Source of the DNA: Clostridia bacterium | GTDB lineage: Bacteria > Bacillota > Clostridia > UMGS1810 | NCBI GenBank assembly: GCA_017416845.1 | Contig: JAFQBA010000100.1 | Span: forward strand, 8,968-72,967 | DNA: 64,000 bases | Direction: 5' to 3' | Shown here: positions 17,205-34,562 of the stretch, in pieces | How the letters are laid out: each line of letters starts with the position of its first letter | Position numbering within the stretch: position 1 is the stretch's first letter | Position numbers and translations under genes: made by a program | Notes under the pieces: model-generated | The model's input: the letters and a program-made list of their open reading frames with translations, nothing else | Told to the model about the DNA's origin: nothing | Database searches by the model: none

Positions 17205-17237
17205 TTAACAATAGTCGCACCGATCAAAAACCGACCA
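17205..17237. repeat. Short repeat pair (TTAACAATAGTC + CAAAAACCGACCA), left copy
   Basis: The 12-mer at 17205-17216 and the 13-mer at 17225-17237 recur exactly at 17770-17781 and 17741-17753, on the same strand but in swapped order. Confidence 0.6.
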
Positions 17238-17296
17238 AATAAATTGGAATAGATCCGTCTGGTTCGGTATCAAATGACCGTTTTTTGGACATGACA

Positions 17297-17329
17297 AAAG
17301 CCTTGCCGTTATTAAAACGACAAGGCTTT
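17297..17329 (-). terminator. Stem-loop directly following a 10-nt tRNA 3'-end-like sequence
   Basis: AAAGCCTTGCCGTT / ACGACAAGGCTTT hairpin. On the minus strand it follows CCTGCACCCA and is followed by TTTTG. The arms are homologous to the hairpin at 34563-34603. Confidence 0.5.
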
Positions 17330-17334
17330 CCTTG

Positions 17335-17603
17335 TGGGTGCAGGATTGCCTTCTTCCGACTTTAAATACCCAATTTCAAACTTTTGCTCTTCGCCAAATC
17401 AACGACCTTTCGGGTTGCGGTTCTCGAATCAAGGCACTCACCCTCACAGGGTGTATGCCTTATCTTCGACCGCTGCCCCTTTTGTGCCTCCCTTCATCTT
17501 CCGCCGGAAGCGGTCGGCACAAAACAAGTTATTCGCCCGCCGTCGGGCTCAAATACCCGGAGCGTGGCGGTTACTCCAAAACTCCGACACTTGCATGCAA
17601 CAA
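17335..17603. ncRNA. GC-rich, highly structured ~270-nt segment of unknown class (candidate ncRNA or relic of an older integrated element)
   Basis: Much more GC-rich than its surroundings and open in five reading frames in the ORF track. Bracketed by two terminator hairpins. Local stems: 17433-17459, 17498-17510, 17535-17548. Crossing complementarity: CGACCGC 17467-73 / GCGGTCG 17510-16, and GTGCC 17484-88 / GGCAC 17516-20. Confidence 0.35.
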
Positions 17604-17638
17604 AAAATTCCTCGGTCTTTTGACCAAGGAATTTTTTT
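17602..17638. terminator. Bidirectional rho-independent terminator
   Basis: AAAAAATTCCTCGGTC-TTTT-GACCAAGGAATTTTTTT, an A-run and T-run flanking an 11-bp stem. On the minus strand it lies immediately 3' of the tRNA fragment. Confidence 0.7.
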
Positions 17639-17683
17639 GGGTGCAGGGGCCGGATTTGAACCAACGACCTCCGGGTTATGAGC
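17638..17683 (-). pseudogene. Truncated initiator tRNA-Met (CAU) 3' half; probable att-site remnant
   Basis: The minus strand reads GCTCATAACCCGGAGGTCGTTGGTTCAAATCCGGCCCCTGCACCCA. This covers the anticodon loop CTCATAA, the CCC side of the initiator-type anticodon stem, the T-arm, an acceptor 3' strand ending in A72, and CCA. It is nearly identical to the 3' half of E. coli and B. subtilis tRNA-fMet as I remember them. The upstream 33 nt cannot form an acceptor or D-arm. Confidence 0.75.
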
Positions 17684-17740
17684 TGATAGAATAAACCCGC
17701 TCTTAAAATCGATGTACTGGACAAAACGGATATCGATATT

Positions 17741-17781
17741 CAAAAACCGACCATAAAACCGACCAATCATTAACAATAGTC
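17741..17781. repeat. Short repeat pair, right copy, with an extra AAACCGACCA
   Basis: CAAAAACCGACCA at 17741-17753, AAACCGACCA again at 17756-17765, and TTAACAATAGTC at 17770-17781. These are possible arm-type integrase sites. Confidence 0.5.
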
Positions 17782-17932
17782 AAGCATATAAATTTAGTTT
17801 GGGGTGTGTGACAGAGATGGTAAAACAAGCTTTGTTGTTACGGACAAGTGAAACTTTTTTTGATTTTCCGACAAGAAAATGGAGCATAAAATTATGCCCC
17901 TAATTTGTTTTTTACTATTCTTTTGCTTTCGA

Positions 17933-18703
17933 TTAATTTATAGTACCATTCTTTATATGATATGCTATATTGTGTTTTTCGCAGAAATCAACAACCACGT
18001 TAGCCGTTTTGTTAAAGAACTCTTTATGTCTCTTATATTCCGAAGCTTTTTTATTGTAATGAATTCTCCCAAAAATTATTTTATCACAAAAACTAACAGC
18101 CTCAAGGATATCGTTAATATTTTGATCTATAAAATTCGGAGTTGGATATGGTTCTATGCTTACCCAGGTCTTGCATCCAAATTCATGTAAAGTTCTTAAT
18201 GCCTGAATCCTTTCATCAAAGGGTACCGAATTAGGCTCATACTCTTTTCTGAATTCTTCATTTAAAGAAATTAAAGTTATCCCATATTCGTTATCTGAAG
18301 ATAATTTCATAAGTTCTTCAGGTAAAATACCTTTAGTTAAAACTGTACACTTTATCCCTGCAGTGTTAAGCTTTTGGATGGCCTTGATGCTCATCTTAGA
18401 TATCTCATCATATCCATACATAAACGGATCCGTAGTGAAACATAGATGAACTGATTTGATTTTATCTTTCAGTTTAGGAATTTCTTTATCTAACAGCTCT
18501 AATGTATTTGAAACCAAATATGGTTCTATCCAATCCTCATAGCAACCGACTTGACCAAAACGTTTTTTTTGCAAATATGCATAACATGGAAATTTACAGC
18601 CATGTGCACAACCCAAAACATGGTTCATAGTATAATCCCCATATTCTACACCTGTAACATAAAGCATGGTCTTTCGCTCTATATATCCTTTGACCTGTTT
18701 CAC
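17933..18703 (-). CDS. Radical-SAM/SPL-like protein with atypical CX3CX3C motif (three-Cys-motif partner of TcmP)
   Basis: GTG start 7 nt after GGAGGTG, overlapping the TcmP stop (GTGA). Motif GCAHGCKFPCYAY. Downstream pattern resembles SplB-type TIM-barrel radical SAM proteins (LCFTTDPF, TVLTKG, YEPNSVPFDERIQALRTLHEFGC, SIEPYP). Confidence 0.55.
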   Translation of the reverse strand: MKQVKGYIERKTMLYVTGVEYGDYTMNHVLGCAHGCKFPCYAYLQKKRFGQVGCYEDWIEPYLVSNTLELLDKEIPKLKDKIKSVHLCFTTDPFMYGYDEISKMSIKAIQKLNTAGIKCTVLTKGILPEELMKLSSDNEYGITLISLNEEFRKEYEPNSVPFDERIQALRTLHEFGCKTWVSIEPYPTPNFIDQNINDILEAVSFCDKIIFGRIHYNKKASEYKRHKEFFNKTANVVVDFCEKHNIAYHIKNGTIN

Positions 18704-19950
18704 GCTTTACACCTCCTCAATGTAATGGTCTTATCTTTACATTCTTCCCAAAATGCAGATTTTTTTCCGTTTTTTCTATGAGCAGGATTTCGCAAAATTT
18801 GCAGTTCTTTTTTTTGTTCTAAAATAGTTAAACTATCATATATCATTTTAAAATCACAGATTAGTCCGTACTCATTAACAAAAGATGCTATATATTCCGT
18901 TAATCCAATTTCGTTATAACCTTTAAGATGCTGCGAAACCTTTTCGGCAATTTCTTCTATTGTTATCAAATCACCTTCCCCAGTAGAAGAACATCCTGTT
19001 AGCATATCAAAAATTGTAAATTGTCCATCTTGTTGAATATTTAAAAACAATTCTTCTTTTCGCTTCTGCATATTTTGAGCCATCAAAAAGCAACCATCCC
19101 TATGGTTACAAACATGCATCATTCGATATTTAGGTCTTTGTCCTTCCTTTAAGCGAATAGGCAAATCAAGAACATATGAAAAAAATTTTTTTAATTGTTG
19201 TTTATACCTTTCAGATAATATTTGTTCAGCTTTATAACCATCAAACTTACCAGCTTTATAATCTTTTACAATATCTTTCCAATAATCTCCACCAGCTATT
19301 GAATTTAACAATACTTCTGATTGAGCATTTGTGTCAACAGTCATAGGGTCATATTCAATCAAATCTTCCAATGAATTCAAAGCTGCATCATTACTATAAT
19401 TAACCCTCATAACTCTGCATGCATCGCGGAAAAAGCCAAAAGAATTGAAGTTTATTAACATTTCAAATGAATTAAACCCTAATGTTTTGAACTTTTTGAA
19501 CAATTCAAAATTTAGTGCTTTTATTCCGTATGGATCTATGTAAAGAAAAACATTATAATTATCTTTATCTGAAAGGCACTTTAAAATTGTTTCTTCATAT
19601 TTACCGGATATTATATTGGCATCTCCATAATTAGAAATGAAGGTGGCAACGTTTTGTTGCAATTCGACGGCATGATCTGACTCAATAAAACAAGGTTGTA
19701 TAGCACCATTCTTAAAGGAAATATTAGCTCTTTTTAAGCAATCTTCTCTAACTTTTAATGCAATCAGAGGTGAACCATCATTGCCATCTTCAAATTTTCC
19801 TTTTCCAGCAAAACAATCTACATAATATATGGGTTTCTTTGTCATAAGAACTTTTTGAAAATATGGTGATAAATAGCAACCCAAAAGTTTATCTTTTATA
19901 ACAGACCAATCGTTTTTCTCTTTAAAGAAATCAGAATTATTTTTTGACAT
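18700..19950 (-). CDS. tcmP: Three-Cys-motif partner protein TcmP-like (methyltransferase-fold N-terminus)
   Basis: The N-terminal pattern W..IK...L..YL..Y......K.IYYVDCFAGKGKF.DG..GSPLIAL matches my recollection of the TcmP family, with a D.FAG.G SAM-motif-I-like element. TAGGAG RBS. Translationally coupled to the CX3CX3C gene. Confidence 0.55.
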   Translation of the reverse strand: MSKNNSDFFKEKNDWSVIKDKLLGCYLSPYFQKVLMTKKPIYYVDCFAGKGKFEDGNDGSPLIALKVREDCLKRANISFKNGAIQPCFIESDHAVELQQNVATFISNYGDANIISGKYEETILKCLSDKDNYNVFLYIDPYGIKALNFELFKKFKTLGFNSFEMLINFNSFGFFRDACRVMRVNYSNDAALNSLEDLIEYDPMTVDTNAQSEVLLNSIAGGDYWKDIVKDYKAGKFDGYKAEQILSERYKQQLKKFFSYVLDLPIRLKEGQRPKYRMMHVCNHRDGCFLMAQNMQKRKEELFLNIQQDGQFTIFDMLTGCSSTGEGDLITIEEIAEKVSQHLKGYNEIGLTEYIASFVNEYGLICDFKMIYDSLTILEQKKELQILRNPAHRKNGKKSAFWEECKDKTITLRRCKA

Positions 19951-20259
19951 TAATAATCAACTCCTACATTAATTTATCTCAATATCATCAATCACTAAAC
20001 ACCTTATCAATGACATCACAAATATTACAATAGATATGATACAACAGCGAAGACTAAATTTATTCAAATTAAAGTTTACCATTTCCATCAATAATTTTCA
20101 TCATCACAGAAATTTACGATTTCAATAACTAATCAGCAAGATACTTCATCGTATCTGATTAAATCACCTTCAAGTTCCGTAAGCGATTCGTCAAAATCGG
20201 CATATTTATAAACTCGCTTATATTATGTGCCAACTTGATTTTTCTGTTTTATCAGGTTA

Positions 20260-20772
20260 TTATAGTTTAATCTTTCCTGCATCGTTTGATATATCTTGAT
20301 ATGGTTCCCCAGGCTGCTCCGACCAAAATTTATTTATATCAAATTCATGCTCCTCTAACTTACTATGTAAATTTGTGATACGGATAAGATCACTTTTATA
20401 GTCTCTTGCTGAGCGACTATTTAGTAATTCTGTAATTTGTCTTATGTTACAGCTTCTTACTAATTCACCTTCTAAGTTTGGTACCTGCGGGATCGTAATT
20501 ACACTAGATATATAAGAACAATCTTTTAATTTTTTCATATTTCTTTTTAAGATTTCTACATTGTTTGTATCAGTATCAAATATTAATACAACAATAGTTC
20601 CCTGCTTTAAAGGTCTTAGGTGCGCATCTTTAATCAGTTCTTGTAACACATTTAGTTTTTGTAATTTTCCCGGAGCTATAACTTTCATAGTATTTTTAAG
20701 GGTGTCAACAAGTTTTTTCTCATCTTCCCCTTCAACATAATACTGAACTATTTGTTTCTTCATTAGTGTCAC
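20260..20772 (-). CDS. Small Toprim-like protein (RloB/DUF4276-type), partner of the upstream ATPase
   Basis: Conserved acidic pattern YYVEGEDEKKLV then VLIFDTDTNN (E ... DxD, Toprim-like). The start overlaps the ATPase stop (GTGA; an alternative ATG lies 9 nt downstream). Confidence 0.45.
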   Translation of the reverse strand: MTLMKKQIVQYYVEGEDEKKLVDTLKNTMKVIAPGKLQKLNVLQELIKDAHLRPLKQGTIVVLIFDTDTNNVEILKRNMKKLKDCSYISSVITIPQVPNLEGELVRSCNIRQITELLNSRSARDYKSDLIRITNLHSKLEEHEFDINKFWSEQPGEPYQDISNDAGKIKL

Positions 20773-21893
20773 CCCTCATCATCTGTATTAATAATATCAT
20801 AAATAAGCTCCAGAGCAGGTGATACTGAAAATGCATCATTTTCTACAGCATTTCTTAAGGAATCAGTATTACGCTTCAGATAAGAAGAAGCATTTACAGG
20901 TTTGATTGTAGTCTCAGGATCTGTAACATCTTTACGTAAAAATGTAAATGTGTGCTTAGGAAGATTCATATCTAAAACATCTGTATTGTGAGTTGTAAAG
21001 AACAGTTGATCGTTTTCGCCTACATATTCAATCATCACAGATAAGATAGCTTTTTCTATGTCACTATGAATATATGAAAATTTTTCATCACAGTAATAAA
21101 AATGATAGTCTTTCTGAATCAAAGATGAAAGCATTGTAGACACTTCAATCCCAGCCTTCGTTCCACTAGAAAGAAAATCTGTAGTTAATAAGTCTCCATC
21201 CTGAATTACAATGGACTTATTTTGGAGATGTATTACGTATGCGTTATCAACATCTTGTGATATCTTAACTTCCTTGATAGATGGATCCAAAGCTTTTAAT
21301 ACATTTTCAAGAACTTGACGAAATTTCTCATCTTTATTTGGCAATTTTAATTTATTCGGGTGATCTTCCGGATACTGAAAAAACCACGATAATTCTTCAA
21401 TCTTTTCAAGCTCGTCTACATAGTTTTCTGACGAATAAAAATCTTTGTTTTCTATTCTTTCTACGCAAGATTCGTAGCTGTCTTTGACTCTAATATTTTC
21501 CTGAATTATCTGTACTTTAATATGACTAGATTGGTAATTTCCATCTGCACATGGTTCTACTACACATATTACCCTATAAAAAACTTGACTGTTTGAAGCA
21601 AGGTCTAAGGTAAATGAAGCTTCCTTGCTAGTATCACAAATTACCGAGGTGATATAACTGTAATTTTTTTGGCTGATGAAATTAAAAATTTTCATCAAAA
21701 TTCGTCCAAAAGTCGTTTTCCCGGATGCATTAGCACCAAAAAACACATTGACTTTTTTGTATCTGAAATTACTGCGTCCTGCTAAATGTTCATCCTGTAT
21801 ATATGATCCTACGATCTTTTTAGGATACGTTAAATTCATTTGAAAGTTTCTAAATGCATAAAAATTATCTAAACACACATTCAATACAACCAT
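20769..21893 (-). CDS. AAA_21/ABC-type ATPase of a split OLD/AbiL/PARIS-like pair
   Basis: ORF 20769..21929. Start moved to ATG at 21893, after AAGGAGG. Walker A is GANASGKTT. Walker B / D-loop-like element is YYCDEKFSYIH. The C-terminal FFTTHNTDVL is typical of this ATPase group. Confidence 0.6.
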   Translation of the reverse strand: MVVLNVCLDNFYAFRNFQMNLTYPKKIVGSYIQDEHLAGRSNFRYKKVNVFFGANASGKTTFGRILMKIFNFISQKNYSYITSVICDTSKEASFTLDLASNSQVFYRVICVVEPCADGNYQSSHIKVQIIQENIRVKDSYESCVERIENKDFYSSENYVDELEKIEELSWFFQYPEDHPNKLKLPNKDEKFRQVLENVLKALDPSIKEVKISQDVDNAYVIHLQNKSIVIQDGDLLTTDFLSSGTKAGIEVSTMLSSLIQKDYHFYYCDEKFSYIHSDIEKAILSVMIEYVGENDQLFFTTHNTDVLDMNLPKHTFTFLRKDVTDPETTIKPVNASSYLKRNTDSLRNAVENDAFSVSPALELIYDIINTDDEG

Positions 21894-22261
21894 TTTGTGC
21901 CTCCTTCGATTTATTTCTTCGTGTTTCACGAAATAATCTCCTTTCTGTTATTCTACATTAAATATTTAAAAAATGCAATACTATATTTAAATTTATTTCC
22001 ATTTTTCTTTAATTTATATATATAATATCCCTTTAGGTATTCATTTATTATTAATAATGATAATAAATATGATTATTTGATGTCATGCATTCTTCGTTTT
22101 AGTATATACAATTAAATTATACACTAAAACTAAAAATATAACTCCTATAAATTTAACAAAAACGAACGCATCCCAATCACTTGTCACAGCTATATTTGAC
22201 CCATATTCCAGGTGAAAAACCAAGTAATATAGCCTAAAATTAATTTTTACAATTTAGTTAC

Positions 22262-22337: not shown

Positions 22338-23474
22338 TTACGCTCTATGCAGAACTATTGAATCAAGCTTTGCCGCAGCTTCCTCATCCATCTCAGGTAA
22401 TACATGTGTGTAAGTATTAAGGGTTATATTTACATCTGAGTGTCCTAATCTTTGCTGAACCACTCTTGGGTTAACGCCTGCCTGGATAAGTGCCGTTGCA
22501 TTACTATGACGAAGATCGTGCAAACGTATTCTTGGCAATCCCCTACTTTCAAGGAATCTTGTCCATTTTCTTGTCATTGAATCGGGTTTAAGGGGAGAAC
22601 CGTCTTCCTGACGTATAACAAATCCAAGGTTCTGAAATCCAACTCCATAAGACAACATATCTTTTGTATATTCTTTCTTGGCAAGTTCCAATTCCTTCAT
22701 AACATCATCACCAAGATGGATGTCACGTATACCCGACTCTGTTTTGGGTGCTTTAATGATGAATCCTTTTTCGCCACGCACCATATTTCTTCTTACTTTG
22801 AGGATATTCTTTTTAAAATCAATATCCTCCCAACGCAGTGCAAGAAGTTCTCCTCGTCTTAAGCCTACAGTTAATAATATTAAAATTGGCAAATACATAT
22901 CTGTACCTTTGGCTTCGTCAAGCAAGCTATACATCATTTTCGGGGAGTATACTTCCGCTTTGTATCTCTTTCTTTTTGGAAGAGATACGCCTTCACATGG
23001 ATTGTAAGGAATGAGTCGTATCTTTACAGCAAGCTTCATCGCCGCATTGACATTATTGAATGTATCCCTAATATTTTTGGGAGATAAGCCTTTAGCAATC
23101 ATTTCATTAACCATCCCTTGAACATGTTCAGCTCTTAATGCCTGTATCAGAATATCACCAATGGCGGGTTTAATGTAACATCTTATCTTACTCTTATACC
23201 CTACTCTTGTTGTTTCTTCTACATTGGAAAGGTATGAATCAACCCACTCATCCATCCATTGACCTATAGTCTTGTCTGTTCTCTTTGTAGTTATTCCTTG
23301 TTCCATTTCTGTAATCATTTTGTGCATTACAGACTTAGCTTCTTTCTTACTACCTTTAACCGTCTTGTATGCTCTGATACGTTTGCCGGTTAATTCATCA
23401 TAGCCACCCTCTACAGTAACTTGATAACTAATACCCGATTTTGTTCTCTTCTCTCTTATGTTACCTGTTGCCAT
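22338..23474 (-). CDS. int: Tyrosine-type site-specific integrase with N-terminal arm-binding domain
   Basis: C-terminal catalytic pattern HDLRHSNATALIQAGVNPRVVQQRLGHSDVNITLNTYTH. R in LRRGELLAL. N-terminal KSGISYQVTVEGGYD..TGKRIR resembles an AP2-like arm-binding domain. AAAGGAG RBS. Confidence 0.9.
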   Translation of the reverse strand: MATGNIREKRTKSGISYQVTVEGGYDELTGKRIRAYKTVKGSKKEAKSVMHKMITEMEQGITTKRTDKTIGQWMDEWVDSYLSNVEETTRVGYKSKIRCYIKPAIGDILIQALRAEHVQGMVNEMIAKGLSPKNIRDTFNNVNAAMKLAVKIRLIPYNPCEGVSLPKRKRYKAEVYSPKMMYSLLDEAKGTDMYLPILILLTVGLRRGELLALRWEDIDFKKNILKVRRNMVRGEKGFIIKAPKTESGIRDIHLGDDVMKELELAKKEYTKDMLSYGVGFQNLGFVIRQEDGSPLKPDSMTRKWTRFLESRGLPRIRLHDLRHSNATALIQAGVNPRVVQQRLGHSDVNITLNTYTHVLPEMDEEAAAKLDSIVLHRA

Positions 23475-23848: not shown

Positions 23849-24499
23849 TTACCAATCATAACTGTAGTCATATTCTTCATCTTCACAAGAATTATTTTTT
23901 GTCTCTTCTTGGAATAATTCCTTTTTATCGATCATTTCTTTTCTTTTCATATTAGCGCAGTAATCAATATACTCTTCCCACGTTATGGGAGTACGTTTAC
24001 AGAATCCTCCAATCTTGCTATTCTCATAATTGAGAGCAACATACTCAGTAGCACCTACAATTTCTTTGACTTTAAATTTTTCCTTACTAAGAAAAACTTT
24101 CATTGAATAAGTAAGATTTTCATAAAACGTTGAACCTATAGGATATACCTGAATTATATGATAAAATCTTACATCGTCGTCAGATATTTTTCCTATAGCA
24201 AGATGATAACAATCCGGATAGGGAATAATCTCATAGTAAACTTTGACGACATCTTTTCCGAATGTTCTTCTTTCATACTCTGCATGTATAATTTCAGAAA
24301 AATACCAGCCGGAAGGTACGTCCTCATAGTTAGGAAATTTATATCCATGGAGTCCATTGCTTTCCATTTCATAGTCCTGAGAAATATCTTTTGTTCTGTC
24401 TACCGTCGTTTTACGAGTTGAGCAAATCAGCTTACCATCTTGATAAGTTGCTCTGTTCGTATAACAAACATTAGTATTTTTTGCATTATTTGTTAACAT
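23849..24499 (-). CDS. Hypothetical protein, paralogue family A (possibly DUF669/phage SSB-like) with acidic C-terminal tail
   Basis: AAGGAGG RBS. Shares VP.G.Y.S.... G.D...V.YEI and Q.YP.GS.F..N...M and G.TE.V.L.Y.N..IGG...R.P with ORF 24651..25283. The tail reads CEDEEYDYSYDW. Confidence 0.6.
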   Translation of the reverse strand: MLTNNAKNTNVCYTNRATYQDGKLICSTRKTTVDRTKDISQDYEMESNGLHGYKFPNYEDVPSGWYFSEIIHAEYERRTFGKDVVKVYYEIIPYPDCYHLAIGKISDDDVRFYHIIQVYPIGSTFYENLTYSMKVFLSKEKFKVKEIVGATEYVALNYENSKIGGFCKRTPITWEEYIDYCANMKRKEMIDKKELFQEETKNNSCEDEEYDYSYDW

Positions 24500-24650: not shown

Positions 24651-25283
24651 TTATTCGTCATCTTCTTCAAGAAAATCATCAAACTCATCATCTTCATCAA
24701 TTGTAATTTTATTTTCAAGCAAGTCCTTTCCTTTGTATTCATGCTTGATATCATTACCATCAGCTTCTTCCTGATTCTCTAGCAGATTAACCTTTGTCAG
24801 TTTCGGTTTTCTGAAAATCCTATCATACTTTTCAGGTTCTAAAGGATGACGTCCAATATAACCGCCAATAGTGGCGTTACCGTAATCTAATGTAACATGC
24901 TCTGTAACGCCAATGGTATCATCAAGATCCATCTCATCAATACCAACCGCTTCAGCCATTGCTTCACAATAATTGTCAAAGAACGATGTCCCTAAAGGGT
25001 AGATCTGACGTATATTATATGTAGGAATATTTGTGTTTGAAGAAAGCTTGCCATTAAGTATCTTTTCACAAATAGAGGCCTCTTTGATTTCATAACAAAC
25101 TTCAATTGCGTCATTACCTGACTTGGTTATAGTTTCTTTTGCAGATACAACTCTTGATATATAATCTCCGGCAGGCACCTGATTTGGGTATGGGAGATTA
25201 AAATTGTTTGCTTTTTTTCTGGTAAGTTTAAACGAAGTTTTGGAGCCTAAATAATTTCTGGTTTTTACATTTTTGGAATTCAT
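24651..25283 (-). CDS. Hypothetical protein, paralogue family A, with long acidic C-terminal tail
   Basis: AAGGAGG RBS. Paralogous to 23849..24499. The tail reads IDEDDEFDDFLEEDDE. Confidence 0.6.
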   Translation of the reverse strand: MNSKNVKTRNYLGSKTSFKLTRKKANNFNLPYPNQVPAGDYISRVVSAKETITKSGNDAIEVCYEIKEASICEKILNGKLSSNTNIPTYNIRQIYPLGTSFFDNYCEAMAEAVGIDEMDLDDTIGVTEHVTLDYGNATIGGYIGRHPLEPEKYDRIFRKPKLTKVNLLENQEEADGNDIKHEYKGKDLLENKITIDEDDEFDDFLEEDDE

Positions 25284-32397: not shown

Positions 32398-32493
32398 TCG
32401 TAAACTTCTATAAAATAACTATATATTATATTTATGAAGCCTATAGTAGCCAAGTGCTACTATAGGTATTTTATTTTTTGGGAGGAATATATA

Positions 32494-33600
32494 ATGAACA
32501 AAGAAAAATTCTGTAATGAATGTGGCATAGCACTTACAGAGCAAAACACAATGGAATTTAACGGCAACGCTATGTGTCAGGATTGCTATGATCGTCTGAC
32601 GATAAGTTGCGACAATTGCGGAGAACGAATATGGGCATCAGATGCCGAGGGTAACGGTAATGTAACAGTATGTATCCACTGTTATGATAACTACTATACT
32701 CACTGCGAAAACTGTGGGATATTGATACACTGCGATAGTGCTTTCTATGAAGACAATTCCGATTATCCATATTGCGAACATTGCTATAACGCAAGAATGG
32801 AAGCACCAATCAAGCCATACAATCATAAACCTTGTCCTGTCTTTCATGGTTCGGGAACTCTTTATATGGGTGTAGAGCTTGAAATTGACAAAGGTGGAGA
32901 AATATCCGAGAATGCCGAAGCTATCATTGACATAGCAAATACAGATAATAATCATATATACTGCAAGCACGACGGAAGTATTGATGATGGATTTGAAATG
33001 GTAAGCCATCCTATGACACTTGAATATCATACTAAGGGTATGAATTGGCGCGAAGTATTTGAACAAGCAGTCAGCATGGGATATCGTTCTCATCAGACGA
33101 CCACATGTGGACTACATATACACGTCAACCGTTCAGCCTTTGGCGAAAGTATTGATGAACAGGAGGATACAATATCAAAAATAATATATCTTGTAGAAAA
33201 CCACTGGAATGAACTGGTAAGATTTTCAAGAAGAACCGAAATGAGTCTTACTCGTTGGGCAAACAGATACGGAATACTGACAACTGCCAAAGAAACCTAC
33301 AAAAGTGCAAAAGGAAAACACTATGGACGTTATGTTGCAGTAAATCTTGAAAATGATAATACTATAGAATTCCGTCTATTCAGAGGTACCCTGAATTATG
33401 ACACTTTCCTTGCCACATTGCAACTTATTGATGAGATATGTAATCTTGCAATACATAGTGATGACAAAGATATAGAATCACTATCATGGAGTTTGTTTGT
33501 ATCTGCTATAGATACTGACAAGAAACCGGAGCTGATTCAATATCTCAAAGACAAACGTCTATATGTAAATGAAAGTACAAACGAAAGAGAGGAAATGTAA
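32494..33600 (+). CDS. Amidoligase-family enzyme (GS-like) with three N-terminal zinc-ribbon repeats
   Basis: ATG at 32494 after GGGAGGAA. Three repeats of C..CG...C..CY (CNECG/CQDCYD, CDNCGE/CIHCYD, CENCG/CEHCYN). Then GVELEID, HDGSIDDGFEMVSHP, GLHIHVNR and NTIEFRLFRGT, the putative amidoligase signature. Confidence 0.65.
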   Translation: MNKEKFCNECGIALTEQNTMEFNGNAMCQDCYDRLTISCDNCGERIWASDAEGNGNVTVCIHCYDNYYTHCENCGILIHCDSAFYEDNSDYPYCEHCYNARMEAPIKPYNHKPCPVFHGSGTLYMGVELEIDKGGEISENAEAIIDIANTDNNHIYCKHDGSIDDGFEMVSHPMTLEYHTKGMNWREVFEQAVSMGYRSHQTTTCGLHIHVNRSAFGESIDEQEDTISKIIYLVENHWNELVRFSRRTEMSLTRWANRYGILTTAKETYKSAKGKHYGRYVAVNLENDNTIEFRLFRGTLNYDTFLATLQLIDEICNLAIHSDDKDIESLSWSLFVSAIDTDKKPELIQYLKDKRLYVNESTNEREEM

Positions 33601-33602
33601 AT

Positions 33603-34517
33603 ATGTGTTGCTTATTCGGATTTTATAACTATAGCGGGAAGCCTATTAAGGACATCTCTGATTTAACAAACAGTCTGGCACAGCAAGCCACTATTAGAGG
33701 AACCGATGCTGCCGGTATTGCCTATGTAAACAAAAACAAGATAACCGTCTATAAAGAAGGAAAGTCTGCTCACCTTATCGACTTTAAACATTCTAACGAT
33801 GTTGTCAGTGTTTTAGGTCATACTCGCCATTCAACGCAGGGAAGTCACAAGAAAAACTTTAATAATCATCCATTTATAGGGAAATGCAACAATGTAGACT
33901 TTGCCCTTGCACACAACGGAGTGATTATGAACGATAAAGAACTGAGAAAGAAATACAAGTTACCGGAACCCAAAATTGAAACCGACAGTTATATTGCAGT
34001 TCAGTTGCTTGAAAAAGAAAAGGAGCTTAATGTTCAAAACATAAGCCAAATGTCCGAAAATGTGGAAGGAAGTTTTGCTTTTTCAATTCTTGATTCAAAC
34101 AACGAGCTTTGGCTTATACGCGGTGATAGTCCTTTGTCGCTTATACACTTGCCTAACTATATGCTGTATGTGTATGCATCAACAGATGAAATTCTTTTTA
34201 AATCGCTCGTAGACACAAATCTTTTTGATGAAGTAAAGAAAGGAAATATGGAAGAATTTGATATTAAATCCAGTGATATTCTGAAAATAACTACAGATGG
34301 TTCAATAACTACAGACAAATTCAAATATTCAAGTTATAGTTCATATGGTAAATATGATTGGTGGAGATATGGAATATCAAGCAGTCTTGATGATGATACA
34401 TATATCGCAGACTTAAAGACCGTTGCAGCATATCAAGGATATTCTCCGGATATGATTGATGAGCTATTGGAAAACGGATTTTCACCCGAAGAAATTGAGG
34501 ATTATATTTATTTTTGA
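33603..34517 (+). CDS. Class II (Ntn) glutamine amidotransferase domain protein
   Basis: Starts MCCLFGF (Cys2 nucleophile). RGTDAAG, GHTRHSTQG, HPF and AHNG are typical of GATase type 2. The start is 3 nt after the amidoligase stop. Confidence 0.65.
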   Translation: MCCLFGFYNYSGKPIKDISDLTNSLAQQATIRGTDAAGIAYVNKNKITVYKEGKSAHLIDFKHSNDVVSVLGHTRHSTQGSHKKNFNNHPFIGKCNNVDFALAHNGVIMNDKELRKKYKLPEPKIETDSYIAVQLLEKEKELNVQNISQMSENVEGSFAFSILDSNNELWLIRGDSPLSLIHLPNYMLYVYASTDEILFKSLVDTNLFDEVKKGNMEEFDIKSSDILKITTDGSITTDKFKYSSYSSYGKYDWWRYGISSSLDDDTYIADLKTVAAYQGYSPDMIDELLENGFSPEEIEDYIYF

Positions 34518-34562
34518 TGGCTGTTGTAACCACTTTCTGGTTTAACCTTACACAAAGGAAAA

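Follow-up and report, generated by a model that had tools for sequence, protein, structure and literature searches.

Two gene pairs, an AbiL-like ATPase pair and a TcmP–radical-SAM pair, beside the integrase of a small clostridial integrative element

We analyzed a 64,000-nt stretch of a Clostridia bacterium contig (JAFQBA010000100.1; "the window" throughout denotes this whole stretch), focusing on an islet of four co-directional minus-strand open reading frames (ORFs) at approximately 17933-21929. Our analysis indicates that this islet probably consists of two functionally independent, separately mobile two-gene modules situated on the integrase-proximal end of a small integrative element. 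Module 1 comprises an AbiLi-like ABC/AAA_21-type ATPase (20769..21893, minus strand, 374 aa) followed by a small, probably Toprim-like nuclease partner (20260..20763, minus strand, 167 aa), and module 2 comprises a long-form TcmP protein (18700..19950, minus strand, 416 aa) followed by a protein of the radical S-adenosylmethionine (SAM) superfamily (rSAM; 17933..18703, minus strand, 256 aa, GTG start). Between them lies a 310-nt spacer (19951..20259, minus strand), in which six-frame translation yields no ORF.

The ATPase frame stays open as far as a GTG at 21929, with the likely start at ATG 21893, which is preceded by an AGGAGG ribosome-binding site and gives a 374-aa product matching independent gene calls on the source contigs. 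Likewise, the ORF of the small partner (20260..20772, 170 aa) has its likely start at ATG 20763, 5 nt past the ATPase stop; this spacing is identical in homologous loci, and homologues of the small partner begin at the equivalent position. In module 2, the TGA stop of TcmP and the GTG start of rSAM overlap as GTGA. An earlier reading of this DNA (hereafter the original prediction) had described four ORFs, two tight co-directional junctions and a set of motifs, all of which are present, with GANASGKTT, DEKFSYIH, TTHNTDVL, E...DxD, VDCFAGKG and GCAHGCKFPCY each located in the window proteins. These features go beyond chance, since each of the four proteins has hundreds of conserved homologues and the acidic and cysteine motifs are invariant.

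To place the two pairs in a wider context, we surveyed TcmP loci in 80 species-representative loci with 9-kb flanks, 19 IMG/VR viral loci and 8 further lineages. An rSAM gene was present in 75 of the 80 species-level loci and adjacent to TcmP in 74, with stop and start codons that typically overlap, and the two genes were adjacent in 15 of the 19 viral loci. An AbiL-like ATPase with its small partner was found near TcmP in none of the 80 species loci within the 9-kb flanks, none of the 19 viral loci and none of the 8 other lineages. The neighbors differ wholly in relatives with 80-83% TcmP identity: one arrangement places an SLFN-like helicase gene before TcmP-rSAM and genes for an OLD-like ATPase and a reverse transcriptase after it, another has Metallophos and flavin-reductase genes, and DNA similarity to these closest TcmP loci starts approximately 30 nt upstream of the TcmP ATG, i.e., at the ribosome-binding site.

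Module 1 has a distribution of its own. In the other loci that we inspected, the small partner always adjoins the ATPase, and the pair flanks a serine recombinase gene in rumen and gut contigs that carry no TcmP in the vicinity, forms an opposite-strand moron between the portal and terminase genes of phage NatCom_17901, and adjoins the integrase gene of Acinetobacter prophage Ab105-3phi. Compared against the family profile, the small partners of NatCom_17901 (4e-45) and Ab105-3phi (2e-11) are both homologous. The ATPase pair is thus a conserved autonomous unit.

The original prediction had instead joined the four genes into one system, in which TcmP and rSAM mark DNA and the ATPase/Toprim pair serves as the cognate nuclease effector, and had proposed tabulating TcmP neighborhoods. 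These do fall in defense islands, but co-occurrence with the ATPase/Toprim pair is zero in all TcmP loci surveyed, an outcome that the original prediction had itself listed as refuting. A single system has in its favor that the four genes run side by side in one direction, both in the window and in two further contigs from its lineage, that no terminator-like site lies between the pairs, and that modification-plus-nuclease logic is frequent among defense systems; it is nevertheless highly improbable and, judging from comparative genomics, largely refuted, given that each pair is also found alone, that genes upstream of TcmP are unrelated in its 80-83% relatives with homology stopping at the ribosome-binding site, and that a 310-nt spacer splits the pairs. 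Weighing against two separate modules, this same spacer is terminator-free by consensus scan, making co-transcription possible. The spacer also contains no helix-turn-helix (HTH) regulator gene. A promoter scan of the region gave a signal not above shuffled background.

The ATPase and its small partner

The module 1 ATPase matched the PADLOC AbiLi model PDLC02335 across residues 7-375 (1.2e-29), with weaker PADLOC matches to AriA, mad3 and PtuA, and exceeded the Pfam cut-offs for both AAA_15 (4.4e-9) and AAA_21 (4.4e-7). It also matched phrog_5836 (1.3e-46), and a sequence search against PDB chains returned no meaningful match. Homologues are found in human-gut phage NatCom_17901 (42% identity) and in Acinetobacter prophage Ab105-3phi, where the gene adjoins the integrase. 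On these sequence matches the protein is an ABC-ATPase of the AbiL/OLD/PARIS type, in agreement with the original assignment to the AAA_21/ABC class.

The small partner belongs to a family of 320 homologues in which the motifs YxVEG, FDxD and PQ..LE.EL are invariant, and it matched phrog_10204 (2.8e-14). In its AlphaFold2 (AF2) model, which has a predicted local distance difference test (pLDDT) score of 95.8, E11 follows strand 1 and D63/D65 follow strand 3, which is the Toprim arrangement. Sub-threshold Pfam matches across the family point in the same direction, with OLD-like_TOPRIM_1 in 16 of 37 members (best 1.7e-4), DUF3226 in 8 of 37 and Toprim_2 in 5 of 37. Foldseek searches of PDB and BFVD gave a best E-value of 0.011, which is not significant; the weak matches with low root-mean-square deviation (3.2-4.2 Å) were primase/Toprim domains.

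Weighing against a Toprim nuclease, the small partner is without a significant structural or profile match, and the PADLOC AbiLii models miss it. Searches against PADLOC returned no match at E<=0.1 for the small partner, none for its homologue P0124 and none at E<=0.01 for 12 further members, and its sequence had no meaningful match among PDB chains. Taken together, the invariant acidic residues and the modeled topology make a Toprim fold probable. The E...DxD signature behind the original description of a Toprim-like protein is present, with Pfam and Foldseek matches staying sub-threshold, and the remark that the protein is unusually small is borne out by the length of 167 aa.

By analogy with OLD, PARIS and AbiL, the ATPase probably responds to an infection cue, by sensing it or by being licensed by it, and it probably controls the small Toprim-like protein as a metal-dependent nuclease that would cut nucleic acid, yielding an abortive-infection-style defense. 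Module 1 would then represent a compact variant within a well-populated ATPase + Toprim class.

The TcmP–radical-SAM pair

TcmP matched the NCBIfam model TIGR04474 (tcm_partner) at 2.3e-30, scoring 106.4 bits against a curated cut-off of 53, as well as the PADLOC models PDC-M30A (1.9e-14) and PDC-M41A (5.7e-5). Its family is large, with 1452 close matches and 2992 clusters at 50% identity at E<=1e-3, 295 of which reach E<=1e-30, i.e., roughly 300 clusters for the long form and roughly 3000 for the TcmP superfamily. Sequence searches against PDB chains gave no meaningful match for TcmP. Its AF2 model (pLDDT 83.9) was searched with Foldseek against PDB, where class I SAM-dependent methyl- and aminopropyltransferases make up most of the top 50 and reach probabilities of up to 1.0; examples include 1jqe (6.9e-4, probability 1.0), with histamine N-methyltransferase, BamL, the CurJ C-methyltransferase, RNMT and SpeE also represented. 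The modeled structure is accordingly of the class I SAM-methyltransferase fold, consistent with the methyltransferase-type motif noted at the outset. Motif I (YxDCFAGxG) and the motif IDPYG are invariant in the family, and distant TcmPs carry DPTG, DPCG or DPFG. Residues ~330-413 form an alpha-beta-alpha-alpha-beta-beta unit that constitutes an extra C-terminal domain, and its DSSP string suggests a winged-helix-like topology.

The partner protein matched Pfam PF04055 over residues 26-201 (1.6e-14, 54.9 bits against a gathering score of 29.5) and phrog_13321 (4.9e-22). Its NCBIfam matches were far sub-threshold, with PA0069 and Rv2578c (SplB-like) at 1.4e-10 and 9e-9 (40.8 vs. 360 bits), and similarly distant matches to rSAM mobile-pair B and DUF5131. 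Its motif GC[AS]HGC[KR][FY]PCYA (CX3CX3C; C32, C36, C40) is invariant in 38 family members across lineages and departs from the canonical CX3CX2C cluster motif. The original prediction of a radical-SAM-like protein with CX3CX3C, coupled to TcmP, thus agrees with the PF04055 match, the invariant motif and the GTGA overlap. On a haloarchaeal plasmid, a TcmP-adjacent rSAM that is 26% identical to the window rSAM (7e-12) carries the canonical GCRHGCKFCY, so the window motif is canonical CX3CX2C with one inserted proline. Actinobacteria and Gordonia phages differ in pairing TcmP with a DUF5131/Gp37-Gp68 protein that carries CX6CX2C; hhalign related the rSAM family to DUF5131 with a probability of 25%, through a local match of 39 columns around the cysteines. 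We also observed that one TcmP on the Haloarcula plasmid CP050016.1 (L112, 3316-5839) is adjoined by two paralogues of the canonical radical-SAM type (347 and 362 aa); they resemble the "radical SAM mobile pair A/B" families of NCBIfam, to which the window rSAM likewise gives weak matches.

The neighborhoods of TcmP-rSAM pairs in other genomes revealed a directional arrangement. Across the pooled 80 species loci, DNA methyltransferases of Types I, II and III accounted for at least 16 (up to 22) of the 90 co-directional genes lying no more than two places downstream of the pair and for 2 of the 135 genes upstream (Fisher p 1e-5 to 4e-8), and ResIII was also common within two positions downstream. 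A co-directional gene began no more than 100 nt from the rSAM stop in 32 of 72 loci. Upstream, we often found an Xre-type HTH gene, or an ImmA/IrrE M78 peptidase with zinc ribbons, and neighbors further included Mrr, YhcG, Type I R, WYL, BREX, GmrSD, SRA, TIR and SIR2 genes. To our knowledge, this directional association with restriction-modification (R-M) and BREX operons has not previously been reported.

Individual lineages illustrate the range of partners. An HTH_26-TcmP-rSAM unit heads Type III Mod/Res and then GmrSD in one lineage (P0007), with one variant containing SRA, NUDIX and reverse transcriptase genes; in others the pair heads Dcm and a SacI-like restriction endonuclease with HhH-GPD and GmrSD (P0066), an 840-aa C5/Eco57I-type methylase accompanied by TIR or SIR2 genes (P0016), or BREX with BrxC/PglY and PglX (P0087, P0097). 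In a further lineage (P0004), the pair is preceded by HTH_26 and an SLFN-like helicase and followed by an OLD-like ATPase and a reverse transcriptase, and two lineages carry the pair alone (P0045, P0115). In the window (P0001), the order is integrase, AbiL-like pair and then TcmP-rSAM at the element end, with no HTH gene. The expectation that TcmP pairs occur in a defense context was therefore correct for TcmP-rSAM pairs, which sit in defense islands.

Several of these loci showed further arrangements. An ImmA/IrrE M78 peptidase of ~479 aa with a double zinc ribbon and a 110-146-aa zinc-ribbon protein recur in many lineages as a co-directional pair directly upstream of TcmP-rSAM (L073-L076, L086, L102, L115, L116, L119, L121 and L124; assigned by Pfam for L121 and matched by gene length for the others), and may serve the cassette as a dedicated sensor or regulator. 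At two loci of one sublineage (L006 and L008, 10033-14560), genes for an SRA protein (ScoMcrA-type), NUDIX and a reverse transcriptase replace the Type III Res downstream of TcmP-rSAM-Mod, an unusual Mod-linked combination. In the closest species-level relative (L030, 7622-12302; 83% TcmP identity), a Metallophos phosphoesterase gene and a flavin-reductase-like gene lie directly upstream and a 420-aa protein without a Pfam match is encoded downstream; the flavin reductase could supply electrons to the Fe-S enzyme.

Hosts of TcmP-rSAM are mostly Clostridia, and also include Desulfovibrionaceae, Bacteroidota, Treponema, Actinomycetota, Synergistaceae, Verrucomicrobiota and a methanogen. Judged by record names, they appear to come largely from gut and other anoxic habitats, which would fit an oxygen-labile Fe-S enzyme. 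Lysogeny-expressed cassettes are a frequent position of prophage-expressed defense genes, and in Gordonia phage Fairfaxidum a distant TcmP lies in the lysogeny cassette right after the immunity repressor, between repressor and integrase. In S. meliloti, TcmP adjoins the Hna defense gene (PMC12445080).

We propose, tentatively, that TcmP-rSAM is a widespread radical-SAM nucleic-acid-modifying immune module with new chemistry, combining a DNA-targeting methyltransferase-fold subunit with a spore-photoproduct-lyase-like radical enzyme built around a CX3CX3C site, and working alone or as the first stage of R-M or BREX. On the best reading of module 2, TcmP would bind SAM and most likely supply substrate (DNA) binding, and possibly a SAM-dependent transfer step, while its partner, a distant relative of the DNA-acting spore-photoproduct-lyase group, would use SAM and a [4Fe-4S] cluster and most likely perform radical chemistry on a nucleobase. 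Together the two would most likely place or alter a covalent nucleic-acid modification serving defense. The cassette would act by itself or as the first stage of R-M or BREX operons, whose first genes it often provides, and elsewhere would come under an Xre-type HTH or M78-peptidase regulator. A nucleic-acid-modifying role had also been part of the original prediction, and is the best reading of the folds and the defense context; the proposed link to the ATPase/Toprim effector did not survive.

A number of observations weigh against this proposal. Methyl transfer by TcmP is uncertain, since its motif IV (DPYG) differs from the canonical DPPY and the aromatic residue is not kept in distant TcmPs. 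Among solved structures, no sequence relative of the rSAM family was detected, its spore-photoproduct-lyase-like assignment draws on low-scoring NCBIfam matches and a published superfamily map, and canonical SAM-cluster binding could be altered or lost through the extra proline. In three of nine sampled lineages R-M genes are not adjacent, such that the R-M link may simply mirror defense-island clustering. Gene structure, folds, conserved motifs, adjacency within the pairs, independence of the two pairs and linkage to defense islands and R-M/BREX are shown here; the Fe-S and SAM chemistry, DNA as the substrate and the defense phenotype are inferred.

One alternative, which we also regard as possible though doubtful, is that TcmP-rSAM is an accessory of methylation-based immunity and not a stand-alone system, the window copy being a cassette detached from its usual partner. 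It might contribute a second epigenetic mark, target phage DNA that has evaded R-M or BREX (cf. GmrSD/BrxU), or repair off-target methylation damage under anoxia. This would fit the downstream bias of methyltransferase genes described above, the position of the pair as first gene block in 5 of 9 Pfam-annotated lineages, in operons that run into Type III Mod/Res, Dcm + SacI-like, a C5/Eco57I-type fusion or BREX with stop and start codons overlapping or <80 nt apart, and the GmrSD genes that often follow. However, the cassette also occurs alone with just an HTH gene or with non-R-M neighbors, as in the window, and its downstream partners belong to unrelated R-M types such that island clustering fits as well as functional coupling.

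It is unlikely that the pair is an orphan DNA-modification module shielding the DNA of mobile elements from restriction in new hosts. Such an anti-restriction function would suit its carriage on integrative elements, plasmids and phages and the methyltransferase fold of TcmP, a homologue of which is annotated as a methyltransferase in Gordonia phages, but the pair often heads chromosomal restriction operons and lies beside Type IV enzymes that attack modified DNA, and the Fairfaxidum TcmP belongs to a lysogeny-expressed cassette. Less probable still is the synthesis of a small-molecule antiviral or signal, e.g., a modified nucleotide as made by viperins or Ophion. Other radical-SAM defense enzymes have been described or proposed to act on nucleotides, and NUDIX and flavin-reductase genes are occasional neighbors of TcmP-rSAM, yet the nearest family-level relatives of rSAM are the PA0069/Rv2578c (SplB-like) and DUF5131 groups and not viperins, the winged-helix-like C-terminal topology of TcmP suggests polymer binding, and no kinase or nucleotide-salvage partner is conserved. 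A housekeeping tRNA/rRNA modification enzyme was rejected on the basis of patchy distribution, mobile-element carriage and neighbor turnover at >80% identity.

Whatever its chemistry, TcmP-rSAM is a conserved, horizontally mobile pair with a strong directional link to R-M/BREX methyltransferase operons across many anaerobe phyla. Should DNA modification or a block on phage prove to be its function, radical-SAM biology in immunity would gain a new branch, and the layering of restriction systems by gut anaerobes could be explained in part; a radical-SAM nucleic-acid-modifying immune module of this kind would be the first radical-SAM DNA-level defense or epigenetic system, distinct from viperins and Ophion.

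The host element and its flanks

The tyrosine integrase of the host element (22338..23474, minus strand) matched Pfam Phage_integrase (4.5e-27), Phage_int_SAM_3 and Arm-DNA-bind_4 as well as phrog_1 (5e-79), and together with an HTH_17 excisionase-like gene it lies directly upstream of the islet, bearing out the view of the four genes as cargo beside an integrase. Consensus scanning placed terminator-like hairpins after the integrase gene and after the rSAM gene, the latter (17881..17900, minus strand) closing module 2. Approximately 250 nt beyond the rSAM stop, the sequence itself shows a tRNA-Met(CAT)-like gene of which the 3' half is present (17639..17685, minus strand), comprising anticodon loop, T-arm, acceptor and CCA, followed by its own terminator. 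This fragment is probably an attachment-site (att) remnant marking the element end. The att end named in the original prediction is supported to that extent; neither an intact tRNA nor a second copy of the tRNA repeat turned up in the window by ARAGORN, Rfam, repeat or pattern searches. A candidate second att copy at 34560 was rejected, as its 15-nt match is merely a similar terminator hairpin.

Just downstream of the tRNA-Met fragment, we observed a GC-rich stretch of ~280 nt (17325-17605, minus strand; ~50% GC vs. 31-36% around it) with a terminator at 17272-17329, which folds at -102 kcal/mol (z = -3.45) and has no Rfam family match. It ends in ...CCUGCACCCAC, a repeat of the 3' end of the tRNA fragment (TGGGTGCAGG at 17335 and 17639), and could be a structured RNA of a new type or a relic of an older integration. 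By eye, the words TTAACAATAGTC and AAAAACCGACCA (17206-17245 and 17742-17785) bracket the block formed by the tRNA fragment and the GC-rich stretch, and may be traces of nested or tandem att sites.

Megablast found no match between the element and phages. The remainder of the element contains DUF1643, DUF3846, amidoligase and glutamine-amidotransferase genes, and host glycoside-hydrolase genes start at ~34.7 kb. The Amidoligase_2 and class II glutamine-amidotransferase genes form a pair on the opposite strand (32434-34517), near the presumed far end, with DUF3846 and DUF1643 nearby. Adjoining the excisionase-like gene are two paralogue-like proteins with acidic tails (216 and 210 aa, at 23849-24499 and 24651-25283), which have no family assignment, although one of them weakly matches a single-stranded-DNA-binding protein phrog (0.002).

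Comparison with known systems

Module 1 most closely resembles AbiL, OLD, PARIS and Gabija, sharing with them a tightly coupled two-gene operon, in which an AAA_15/AAA_21 ABC-type ATPase is followed by an E...DxD partner on a probably Toprim-like beta-alpha core, and carriage on phages and integrative elements at typical cargo sites. It differs in that the partner is just 167 aa, matches no PADLOC AbiLii, AriB or GajA model and forms its own family (phrog_10204; 320 homologues). Relative to AbiL proper (AbiLi + AbiLii), module 1 has the AbiLi-type ATPase next to a partner that the AbiLii models do not recognize.

For module 2, full-text literature searches on the function of TcmP or Gp37/Gp68 returned annotation-level mentions and no functional study. 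The original statement that the TcmP/three-Cys pair has no assigned function thus stands for the searchable literature, with the addition that related TcmP + DUF5131 pairs are already PADLOC candidates.

Radical-SAM enzymes are known in a defense setting from prokaryotic viperins and Ophion (bioRxiv 10.1101/2025.09.30.679545), whose substrates are described or proposed to be nucleotides. The window rSAM shares this setting, but belongs to another rSAM clade; the Ophion rSAM is viperin-related, its partners are PHP and PRTase where a methyltransferase-fold protein is found here, and viperins and Ophion combine nucleotide substrates with the canonical cluster motif. With both clade and partners differing, we rejected TcmP-rSAM as an Ophion- or viperin-like system.

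Closer ties are suggested to the SplB-like proteins (PA0069, Rv2578c; RadicalSAM.org megacluster 5), among which the window rSAM, itself in the radical-SAM superfamily, has its best NCBIfam matches. RadicalSAM.org places DUF5131 in megacluster 5-2, beside spore photoproduct lyase in 5-3 (PMC9477430), and the spore photoproduct lyase group offers a DNA-acting precedent for the window rSAM. Differences lie in scores far under the family cut-offs, the extra proline in the motif and an obligate methyltransferase-fold partner.

The nearest described systems are PDC-M30 and PDC-M41, unvalidated PADLOC candidates made up of TcmP and DUF5131/Gp37-Gp68 "three-Cys" pairs. Shared with these are the TcmP A component, the two-gene layout with a three-cysteine Fe-S-type partner, and occurrence on mobile elements and phages. 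In contrast, both of their B models are DUF5131-type with CX6CX2C, whereas the window partner is a PF04055-type rSAM with CX3CX3C, and an additional C-terminal domain marks the window TcmP as the long form. True DUF5131 partners match the PDC B models at about 1e-105 to 1e-109; the window rSAM reached these models at just E 1e-3 to 1e-5, in the N-terminal cysteine region, matching PDC-M41B at 3.7e-4 over residues 17-112 and leaving PDC-M30B unmatched. Because only one B model is matched, and marginally, PADLOC would not call the window pair, and PADLOC 2.0 would miss this subtype, its B-component models covering the DUF5131 form alone. TcmP-rSAM is accordingly a distinct, uncharacterized subtype of an unvalidated candidate kind, set apart by its conserved non-canonical cluster motif.

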